48,680 nucleotides of DNA, from the IMG/VR virus record IMGVR_UViG_647533159_000004; one strand, given 5' to 3'. This document shows, one piece after another, positions 38,715-40,093 of the stretch. This DNA comes from a virus. Taxonomy: Duplodnaviria > Heunggongvirae > Uroviricota > Caudoviricetes. Each line of letters opens with the position of its first letter. Positions within the stretch are counted from its first letter, which is position 1. Both the position numbers and the translations under genes were made by a program. The notes below the pieces were generated by a model. That model was not told where the DNA came from and did no database searches. It saw nothing but the letters and a program-made list of their open reading frames with translations.

Positions 38715-39062
38715 ATGAGAACATGGGGCCGCGTCACCGACGCGAACGGCAACAAAAAATGGGTTGCAGTAGAATCTGACGCCAACGGTGATTTCTCCTA
38801 CGGCTGGCTGACGACGCTCATTCAGACGTTAAAGCTGGGATTGGGGGAGTCGCCATTTTACGCGAATTACGGTATTCCTGCGCAGCAGTGCATCGTGCAG
38901 CAGATTTACCCGGACTACTATGTGAACATGGTTCAGCAACAGTTTGCCGGGTATTTTGCATCATTGGCCATTTCAAAGGTAGATGGGGCAGAGAACCCCA
39001 CCTATAACATCGATGTTGTGTTTTTTAACGGAACCAGTTACCGGACGCAGGTTCCGGTTTGA
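38715..39062 (+). CDS. Hypothetical tail/baseplate protein, 115 aa
   Basis: ATG at 38715. Confidence 0.45.
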   Translation: MRTWGRVTDANGNKKWVAVESDANGDFSYGWLTTLIQTLKLGLGESPFYANYGIPAQQCIVQQIYPDYYVNMVQQQFAGYFASLAISKVDGAENPTYNIDVVFFNGTSYRTQVPV

Positions 39063-39526
39063 GGCAAGCTTTCGGGCATCAGTTGGGCCAGTGGCGTGTT
39101 AAGAAGTTCATCGCGAGGCATGACAATCCATCCACTTTTGCGTAGTAAGTGAATTGCCCATTCTGTGGTTATAACTGAGCCTGATTTGTGGTGCTCAATG
39201 TGGGTAACGGAGCCGTTTCTGACGCGCATGATGATGTCAACATTCAGAGGGGATTGTGTGCTGGTGGTTTCTTCGCGCAGCTTCTTCTCGCACTCGATGA
39301 AGTATCGGCGGATCTGGCAGCCTTTTTCGTTGCGCTCGACCATTGCCAGTTCTTTGGCGGGGTCCAGGATGAGGTGGTAGTCTTTAGCTGGTATGCCTCT
39401 ATCGATTATTTCCCGATTTTGGGAAATAATCAAAAAGTCCTGATTTTCTACGAATTCATACTCGCTGATTCGCTCGGTGATCCAAGTAGCAAAGCGTTTA
39501 CCTACTTCGAGAAAGGCGTGCATCAT
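39038..39526 (-). CDS. Antirepressor-like protein (AntA-type N-terminal region), about 162 aa
   Basis: ATG at 39524-39526; N-terminal region resembles phage antirepressor domains by recollection; inserted on opposite strand inside the tail module. Confidence 0.45.
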   Translation of the reverse strand: [162 protein letters not shown]

Positions 39527-39544
39527 AAATATCACTGCCTGATT

Positions 39545-40093
39545 TTACATGTTTTCTTTACAGGAATTGATTGCAGCCTTATATGCTTCCGGAAGGCCAT
39601 CTAATGGGAAGAATATTTTTTGTGGTTTTTCTTTACTTTCAGTTGGCGGAGTGTACCAAAAAGAAAAACTACCTTTCCCTTTAGATTTTAACAAATCACT
39701 AATCTTTAATGAGCTAATAGGACTGAACAAGTAACCTTCATTGATAGATGGGGTTGTTATAGAGTCCTGCTTTTGTTGTCCACTGATTTTATAGCTTACA
39801 GGAAGGAACGGTGGTAAATCCATTTGTTTATATCCAATAAAATGATTGACAGTTACATCACCGGGCTCACATTGAGTTAACGGTGATATATCAATAAATA
39901 AAGTTGATTTATCCTGCGGCAATTTGGATTCAACACCAATACGATAAGCCATAGTGGTAGGCATGGTAAACTCAGCATAATACCATTTACCAAATTGTTG
40001 AATGTCATTCATTCTCTCTGTGGCATCAATTGCATGAGAAACACCAGAAAATAGCAGTGAGCTAATCAAAATCCCTAATGAGTTAAATTTCAT
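39545..40093 (-). CDS. Secreted protein with N-terminal signal peptide, 182 aa, unknown function
   Basis: ATG at 40093 with AGAGGA SD; signal peptide MKFNSLGILISSLLFSGVSHA; AT-rich. Confidence 0.6.
   Translation of the reverse strand: MKFNSLGILISSLLFSGVSHAIDATERMNDIQQFGKWYYAEFTMPTTMAYRIGVESKLPQDKSTLFIDISPLTQCEPGDVTVNHFIGYKQMDLPPFLPVSYKISGQQKQDSITTPSINEGYLFSPISSLKISDLLKSKGKGSFSFWYTPPTESKEKPQKIFFPLDGLPEAYKAAINSCKENM

Follow-up and report, generated by a model that had tools for sequence, protein, structure and literature searches.

What do two minus-strand open reading frames (ORFs) do in the midst of a baseplate operon that is read from the plus strand? The question is raised by a 48,680-nt stretch of viral DNA (IMG/VR record IMGVR_UViG_647533159_000004; the whole stretch is called the window in the following), which corresponds to an Escherichia coli prophage of the Rac-SA53 type with a contractile tail. 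In its late region, which shares about 94% identity with Escherichia phage Rac-SA53 and with Actinobacillus phage vB_Apl-pPE4 (PP818812.1; hereafter pPE4), a gene for a secreted protein of 182 amino acids (aa) and an antirepressor-like gene (ant) of 162 codons fill the interval between the baseplate genes at the W position and J. A preliminary description, made from the letters of the DNA, took both for opposite-strand morons. For the 182-aa gene this view holds, as it is AT-rich, patchily distributed and behaves as exchanged cargo, but ant is better described as a deletion remnant than as an independent moron. On the evidence of sequence comparison, the W–J interval is a recombination hotspot for AT-rich accessory genes, which here holds one intact cargo gene and one wreck. 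To the more far-reaching explanation, namely that an intact envelope cargo with the fold of the Bartonella protein IalB lies beside the ant wreck in this hotspot, is expressed from the prophage and serves most plausibly in phage exclusion, we give roughly even chances.

The interval between the W-position gene and J

The tail module begins with a protein that has an SLT domain and sits at the tape-measure position, followed by four baseplate-region genes, including the hub and the spike at the V position, then by the W-position gene, the slot, J, an I-like gene and the genes for the fibre and for fibre assembly (Table 1). The gene that borders the slot on the left is kept at the same place in pPE4, in Rac-SA53 and in every E. 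coli relative examined, and the start codon of J on the right agrees with the annotation in pPE4 and in the RefSeq relatives. The layout given in the preliminary description, with two minus-strand ORFs between plus-strand baseplate genes, an AT-rich secreted-protein gene and 21 bp between the start of the latter and J, was confirmed in all three respects. The G + C content of the secreted-protein gene is 35.3%, compared to 49.9% in J, 50.6% in the W-position gene and 48.1% in the window as a whole. At the other end of the slot, the overlap of the 3' ends of ant and the W-position gene is annotated in all relatives examined (e.g., 2827 vs 2851 in locus L003).

With respect to the distribution of these genes among 5,426 complete E. 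coli genomes, a J gene of the window type was found in 89, the match covering at least 80% of the gene in 87 of them, and 89 of the 90 matching records are 95–99% identical to the J gene of the window. Only 19 of these 89 J-bearing genomes have the 182-aa gene. The slot can instead be filled by the gene for a secreted protein of 179 aa (25 genomes), by that for a secreted protein of 248 aa (14 genomes), which RefSeq names an LprI-family protein and which matches Pfam LprI below the threshold (E = 0.016), or by a gene on the plus strand for a nuclease-like protein of 386 aa with an HSDR_N domain, in which case no ant is present in the slot. A rac61-like secreted protein is encoded alongside the 182-aa gene in 10 genomes, and modules with a YafO toxin occupy the slot in a Citrobacter relative and in one locus from a metagenome assembly. 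The G + C content is 31–37% in each of the five cargo genes measured, and the four secreted cargo proteins are mutually unrelated in sequence. In RM9088, an IS1 element interrupts the 182-aa gene. PADLOC found no match for the two proteins of the window or for four alternative cargos of the slot.

The comparison with pPE4 further shows how the 182-aa gene has moved. Its two copies (39545–40093 in the window and 6834–7382 in locus L001 of pPE4) are identical over all 549 nt, while the synonymous divergence (dS) between window and pPE4 is 0.167 in J and 0.166 in ant; the lack of any difference in the cassette, with flanks at a dS of about 0.17, therefore points to a recent exchange of the cassette between backbones. 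The recombination breakpoints between window and pPE4 hug the 182-aa cassette.

When the gene is held against the moron definition of Hendrix and Juhala (as given in PMC3594210), it occurs in only some of a set of similar phages, the others carrying different genes in its place, and its G + C content is unlike that of its neighbours, a contrast that recurs in the Salmonella and Buttiauxella relatives (34% vs 52%). A terminator of its own, which likewise belongs to the definition, was not found in the window, where the scan detected no terminator-like site between the 182-aa gene and ant and none directly after ant.

Outside E. coli, close homologues were found in six further contexts, i.e., two Salmonella loci, Buttiauxella, Citrobacter and two loci from unassigned sequencing data, all of them divergent from J by 21–29 bp, and in two of the six the homologue is alone in the slot. 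The 182-aa protein is 49–51% identical to its Salmonella and Buttiauxella counterparts; the corresponding values for the tail proteins are 56–57% for J, 59–61% for I, 50% for the hub, 55–61% for V and 79–82% for W. The homologous genes stay at 34–35% G + C while diverging together with the tail module. The 182-aa gene is thus a constant J-proximal resident of the slot in the Salmonella, Citrobacter and Buttiauxella phages and in the two unassigned loci, and no sporadic insertion. Distant members of the family lie, in all four contexts examined, in small integrative elements, with the gene at the end of the cargo or beside the integrase; the integrase is accompanied by a Prim-Pol/AAA_25 gene in the first, by a DUF5906 helicase in the second, by a helix-turn-helix (HTH) and an AAA_25 gene in the third and by AbiE in the fourth.

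Table 1. Features of the slot, of the remaining window and of related loci. Positions are those of the window unless a locus is named.
Feature	Position	Strand	Evidence or remark
W-position baseplate gene, 115 aa; left border of the slot	38715..39062	+	phrog_7986 at 3e-64
Convergent overlap of the 3' ends of ant and the W-position gene, 25 nt	39038..39062	.	ORF coordinates
5'-truncated AntA-family antirepressor gene (ant), 162 aa	39038..39526	-	Pfam AntA, 2.9e-21
Deletion junction ATGA/TGCAC, joining the lost rac61-like ATG to ant codon ~26	39520..39526	-	DNA alignment
Spacer of 18 nt, stop codon of the secreted-protein gene to fused ant start	39527..39544	-	Originally the spacer before the deleted rac61-like gene
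Secreted-protein gene, 182 aa	39545..40093	-	Predicted signal peptide, codons 40031-40093
Gap between the divergent ATGs of the secreted-protein gene and J, exactly 21 bp	40094-40114
Shine-Dalgarno sequence AAGAGGA, 4 nt ahead of the secreted-protein ATG	40098..40104	-	Read from the sequence
Candidate leftward promoter	40112..40140	-	Position weight matrix scan
Baseplate J gene, 408 aa; right border of the slot	40115..41341	+	Pfam Baseplate_J 1.5e-7, phrog_6 7e-38
RalA antitoxin RNA	1557-1735	+	222 bits; RalR/RalA type I toxin-antitoxin system of the Rac prophage
sok antitoxin RNA (hok/sok module)	13574-13747	+
Two adjacent tRNA genes	16256-16406	+
sRNA-Xcc1 sites	L005 3536-3619; L002 6918-7001; L003 3425-3510; L004 3522-3606; L021 1515-1599	-
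sRNA-Xcc1 sites	L008 6730-6833; L009 3612-3715	+

The antirepressor ORF

The 162-aa protein matches Pfam AntA (PF08346; E = 2.9e-21, 76.3 bits vs a cut-off of 27), in agreement with its preliminary description as antirepressor-like, but the gene has lost its promoter, an sRNA-Xcc1 leader and about 25 codons and can hardly be counted as an independent moron. Its protein begins only at positions 26–32 of the PHROG profiles for Ant (phrog_377, phrog_5817). Full-length alleles at the same place encode 185–187 aa and start with MTxQLIPVFxGxxSNETxLLCNARDLH, whereas the allele of the window starts with MMHAFLEV (an alternative GTG start lies at 39535) and lacks the conserved 24–25 N-terminal residues of the five full-length alleles.

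The DNA alignment with P13-6 and Rac-SA53 has one clean gap in the window, the size of which is 819 bp as given by the size difference of the matched places (a 2720-bp place vs the 1901-bp query). The missing 819 bp hold a gene for a rac61-like secreted protein of 154 aa, a hairpin followed by a U-run (this being our own reading of the sequence, as the terminator scan did not flag the hairpin), a promoter-like site TTGACT-18-TACAAT, a match to sRNA-Xcc1 and the first ~25 codons of ant, so that the remainder of ant is now headed, in frame, by the ATG of the lost gene and the spacer upstream of it. An origin by recombination between ant paralogues was considered and ruled out, since the deleted rac61-like neighbour is a secreted protein unrelated to ant; for the same reason a simple deletion with in-frame fusion is favoured. 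The 162-aa ORF is thus best read as the 3' three-quarters of an AntA-type gene, left by an 819-bp deletion and fused in frame to a foreign start.

The same junction as in the window is found in ETEC1747, where ant (L017 1939–2406) has in addition a 7-aa deletion, and in U90, where it (L006 2827–3216) has multiple deletions and is called a pseudogene. In B-766, RefSeq annotates an N-terminally truncated ant pseudogene (L020 1625–2023) beside a different cargo gene, and this annotation, which refers to an unaligned junction, suggests a truncation separate from that of the window. Loss of the 5' end of ant, or decay of the gene, thus seems to have taken place in more than one lineage and beside different cargo genes (B-766, U90, ETEC1747), which suggests repeated selection against a working antirepressor at the slot. 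In the window allele, moreover, a block of 26 residues that is otherwise invariant bears three private, non-conservative changes (T to I, T to P and R to C); the number of private changes in each of the five full-length alleles is 0–1. The ant ORF of the window probably has no activity left, or has at least lost its regulation.

Alternatively, the two genes might form a working operon, with the 162-aa Ant still active as an antirepressor and expressed together with the secreted protein. Its reading frame is uninterrupted, its AntA domain scores 76 bits, the alleles of pPE4 and TUM1881 share the truncation and have no private damage, and the fusion provides an ATG as well as a transcript. However, the protein has lost about 25 residues at its N-terminus, which every full-length allele and the PHROG profiles have conserved, the promoter and the sRNA-Xcc1 leader are gone, and extra damage is present in three of five truncated alleles but in no full-length one of the five compared; lysogeny would also be expected to become unstable if an antirepressor shared its transcript with a gene that is active in the lysogen. 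We therefore consider continued antirepressor activity doubtful. The window ORF resembles the AntA/AntB antirepressors (PF08346; e.g., antB1 of Stx phage P13374) in having an AntA domain above the threshold, and its C-terminal half is about 87–89% identical at the DNA level to ant genes of Stx phages over about 110 nt, but it differs from them in its N-terminal truncation, in the lack of an own promoter and leader and in its location in a tail module instead of the immunity region. No solved structure of an AntA domain that would show the role of the missing N-terminus was found. For annotation this locus calls for caution, as the label "antirepressor" does not mean here that a working switch is present.

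In all seven loci scanned, Rfam sRNA-Xcc1 (RF02221) lies about 20–35 nt upstream of a full-length ant or Bro-N gene and on the same strand; in the three undeleted E. coli loci of the layout described above it scores 70–78 bits (gathering score 53) at about 35 nt upstream of the ant ATG, and the Rfam scan detected none in the window. It precedes both the AntA genes of E. coli and the unrelated Bro-N gene of Salmonella, and according to a paper on APSE phages it is likewise located upstream of an ORF6N gene. Instead of an independent virulence sRNA, sRNA-Xcc1 seems to be a conserved partner RNA or 5' leader of genes of the antirepressor type.

The 182-aa protein and its fold

The N-terminus of the 182-aa protein, MKFNSLGILISSLLFSGVSHA, can be read as a signal peptide with a basic n-region, a hydrophobic h-region and a cleavage site of the A-x-A type (S-H-A), i.e., as MK-FNSLGILISSLLFSGV-SHA with cleavage before ID, features that agree with the Sec signal peptide of the preliminary description. 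Stretches of 19 residues with a mean hydropathy above 1 are confined to residues 1–25, with no later hydrophobic span, and cysteines are present only at positions 75 and 178, none of them in a lipobox. The predicted product is a soluble protein exported via Sec and processed by type I signal peptidase, with neither lipobox nor membrane span; the mature form would comprise 161 aa (18.2 kDa, pI 5.9), and the pair C75/C178 would fit a periplasmic disulfide.

Searches of Pfam (E ≤ 1), NCBIfam, PADLOC and the PDB sequences gave no match to the protein, and in PHROGs it matches only the unannotated family phrog_31333. A database of 5.8 billion proteins contains 13 close clusters with 49–97% identity, the named ones all from Enterobacteriaceae, and an exhaustive search of 1.8 billion representatives retrieved 41 proteins at E ≤ 0.001, most of them 171–244 aa long and 22–41% identical. 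Most of the 41 have a signal sequence in the alignment, the typical length is about 185 aa, and none matches Pfam at E ≤ 0.01. W37, C75 and C178 are invariant in the family alignment, and Y50, R51, D68, F123, G141, W146, F162 and G166 nearly so. Among the E. coli alleles, the ratio of nonsynonymous to synonymous divergence (dN/dS) of the gene is 0.07–0.21, which indicates purifying selection. Taken together, the protein belongs to an unannotated family that was found only as cargo of prophages and of small integrative elements. That it might be a component of the virion is ruled out by the signal peptide, the opposite strand, the fact that most prophages with this tail lack the gene, and the one copy disrupted by IS1. 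The preliminary description had regarded homology to a virion structural component as incompatible with its proposal, and neither homology nor structure searches gave any resemblance to virion parts.

An AlphaFold2 model built on the 41-sequence alignment (predicted local distance difference test, pLDDT, 90.8; predicted template modelling score, pTM, 0.80) predicts a beta-sandwich that ends in a long C-terminal helix; an earlier model from a shallow alignment of 13 sequences was poor (pLDDT 56.5) and was set aside. In a Foldseek search of the PDB at E ≤ 0.001, the only matches were the six chains of 3DTD, i.e., IalB of Bartonella henselae (best E 1.8e-4, TM scores 0.58/0.71), and a search of the same type in BFVD returned only uncharacterised proteins of T4-like phages. 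Judging from this model, the 182-aa protein shares the fold of IalB (Pfam PF06776), its only close structural relative, but fails every sequence test of membership in the IalB family. The two proteins are only 11–13% identical, the PF06776 profile matches neither the window protein (Pfam, E ≤ 1) nor any of the 41 family members (E ≤ 0.01), and the family profile gave no match at E ≤ 10 among the PDB chains, 3DTD included. Furthermore, IalB is encoded by a chromosomal gene of Hyphomicrobiales, the window protein by mobile elements of Proteobacteria. IalB is a signal-peptide protein of about 20 kDa that has been tied to the invasion of erythrocytes, and transfer of ialB conferred an invasive phenotype on E. 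coli (PMC6299047), while its location and mechanism are still disputed (PMC6299047; bioRxiv 10.64898/2026.01.22.700529).

As regards expression, with only 21 bp between the two start codons at least the -35 element of a promoter for the 182-aa gene must lie inside J. A scan with a position weight matrix (PWM) gave a candidate in which a -35 element GTCATA (40135–40140) is separated by a 17-nt spacer from an extended -10 element TGaCATAAT (40112–40120) that overlaps the ATG of J, the -10 hexamer being the reverse complement of ATTATG in J. GTCATA-17-TGaCATAAT is, as promoter of the 182-aa gene, purely hypothetical. We infer that the gene is expressed in the lysogen.

Beyond the slot, the window contains the RalA antitoxin RNA, a sok RNA and two tRNA genes, which lie in the early and middle part of the prophage. 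It is interrupted by three runs of N, i.e., masked sequence or assembly gaps (10374–11240, 18253–18408 and 44569–45484), the last of which breaks the second tail-fibre gene, located downstream of the gene for fibre assembly; any ORF listed across one of them is an artefact. The tail module of the Salmonella relatives has a second cargo slot with a hok/sok module beside the hub gene (L008 9828–10154, L009 6710–7036); this insert lies a few genes upstream in the baseplate region and is followed by two more genes on the same strand. The pPE4 record (PP818812.1), which is labelled as a phage of Actinobacillus pleuropneumoniae, is 94–97% identical to E. coli prophages of the Rac-SA53 type over most of the late region, and its host label looks doubtful.

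Possible functions of the slot cargo

If the explanation favoured here is correct, a promoter that overlaps the first codons of J would drive leftward transcription of the 182-aa gene in the lysogen, the gene product would act in the periplasm to the benefit of the lysogen, and the truncated ant would now merely be co-transcribed and probably inactive. The likeliest role of the protein would be to hinder the entry of other phages, i.e., superinfection exclusion at the envelope in the manner of HK97 gp15, phi80 Cor and P22 SieA. This specific function, directed from the periplasm of the lysogen against incoming phages, is proposed tentatively, and we put its probability clearly below even. It is suggested because of the precedent set by these three proteins, because of the conflict-type company of the gene (HSDR_N, YafO and, in a distant element, AbiE) and because the family is restricted to mobile elements; morons that are located inside tail operons and exclude phages have been described (PMC3594210).

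Several points weigh against it. The exclusion function would be argued from the company the gene keeps and from its likeness to other systems, PADLOC has no match for the 182-aa protein, none of the homologues found has been functionally characterised, and the biochemical role of IalB itself is open (PMC6299047). A strict sigma-70 consensus scan returned no promoter upstream of the gene, and the PWM candidate is weak, as 3.9% of random 60-mers drawn from the window score at least as high as it does (8.1). In the truncated ant, the frame remains open and nearly all of the Pfam AntA domain is retained, and some residual activity is conceivable. Finally, the divergence of the 182-aa protein (49–51% identity) parallels that of the baseplate proteins J, I, V and hub (50–61%), a pattern that would be compatible with a role in the cycle of the phage itself as well.

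A role of this last kind, in which the periplasmic protein conditions the envelope for release or entry or neutralises the tail's own lytic transglycosylase, would account for a gene that stays beside J and diverges with it: the divergent position at 21–29 bp is kept across lineages with baseplate proteins that are 50–60% identical, the protein at the tape-measure position has an SLT domain, and one alternative occupant of the slot is annotated as an LprI-family lysozyme inhibitor. However, the latter match is below the Pfam threshold, the 182-aa gene is present in just 19 of the 89 J-bearing E. coli genomes and replaced by unrelated genes elsewhere, the copy in RM9088 is disrupted, the gene and the late operon are on opposite strands and family members also occur in elements without tails, all of which makes a function in the phage cycle very improbable. 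Alternatively, in a classical case of lysogenic conversion, the exported protein might be a factor of virulence or colonisation that alters the dealings of the bacterium with animal cells or tissues, as does IalB, its only close structural match, which is linked to erythrocyte invasion and to an invasive phenotype in E. coli (PMC6299047); most carriers are indeed pig or ruminant isolates of enterotoxigenic (ETEC) or Shiga toxin-producing (STEC) E. coli. This bias may simply follow the distribution of the prophage, though, and the protein is not related in sequence to IalB, whose own mechanism and location are in dispute. The distant members examined, moreover, come from metagenome assemblies (JGI, ENA, Logan) and reside in small integrative elements, not in known pathogens, and a role in host interaction accordingly seems unlikely.

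A bolder version of the exclusion hypothesis can be formulated, to which we assign a low probability: IalB-fold proteins of about 185 aa might constitute a widespread and so far unrecognised class of periplasmic proteins of mobile elements that block contractile-tail phages at the envelope, with the copy adjacent to J co-evolving with the baseplate that it recognises. If true, this co-evolution would explain the fixed position as well as the parallel divergence, and the blocking of phages would give the IalB fold its first mechanistic role.

The kind of arrangement described here, a moron and hotspot in a tail operon, is already known; the family of the 182-aa protein is an uncharacterised one. 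Accessory and defence-gene hotspots of P2/P4-type temperate phages were reportedly described by Rousset et al. in 2022. The W–J slot has in common with such hotspots the fixed position between two genes, the conserved flanks and the interchangeable, unrelated and AT-rich cargo, including HSDR_N and YafO modules, but differs in lying inside a baseplate operon of another phage group and in holding mostly secreted cargo without PADLOC matches (for the two proteins of the window and four further cargos). The known morons in tail operons (HK97 gene 15, lambda lom, phi80/N15 cor; PMC3594210) are likewise accessory genes wedged between tail genes, with deviant G + C content, a patchy distribution among near-identical phages and envelope proteins as products. 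However, gp15 of HK97 is an inner-membrane protein and Lom and Cor are outer-membrane proteins, whereas the 182-aa product is predicted to be soluble and periplasmic and has no sequence or fold in common with them; also, no terminator belonging to the gene was found in the window, and expression in the lysogen is here only deduced.

Prophage cargo in tail operons is a proven source of exclusion as well as virulence functions. Against this background, a discrete W–J hotspot, filled mostly by unrelated secreted proteins, can be defined in a prophage group found in 89 of 5,426 complete E. coli genomes, including many of ETEC or STEC isolates from livestock, and the 182-aa protein becomes the founding member of an unannotated family of mobile elements with a predicted IalB-like fold. 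If this family excludes phages, it would add a defence at the level of the envelope and open a first functional approach to the IalB fold; otherwise, the gene would be a routine moron.

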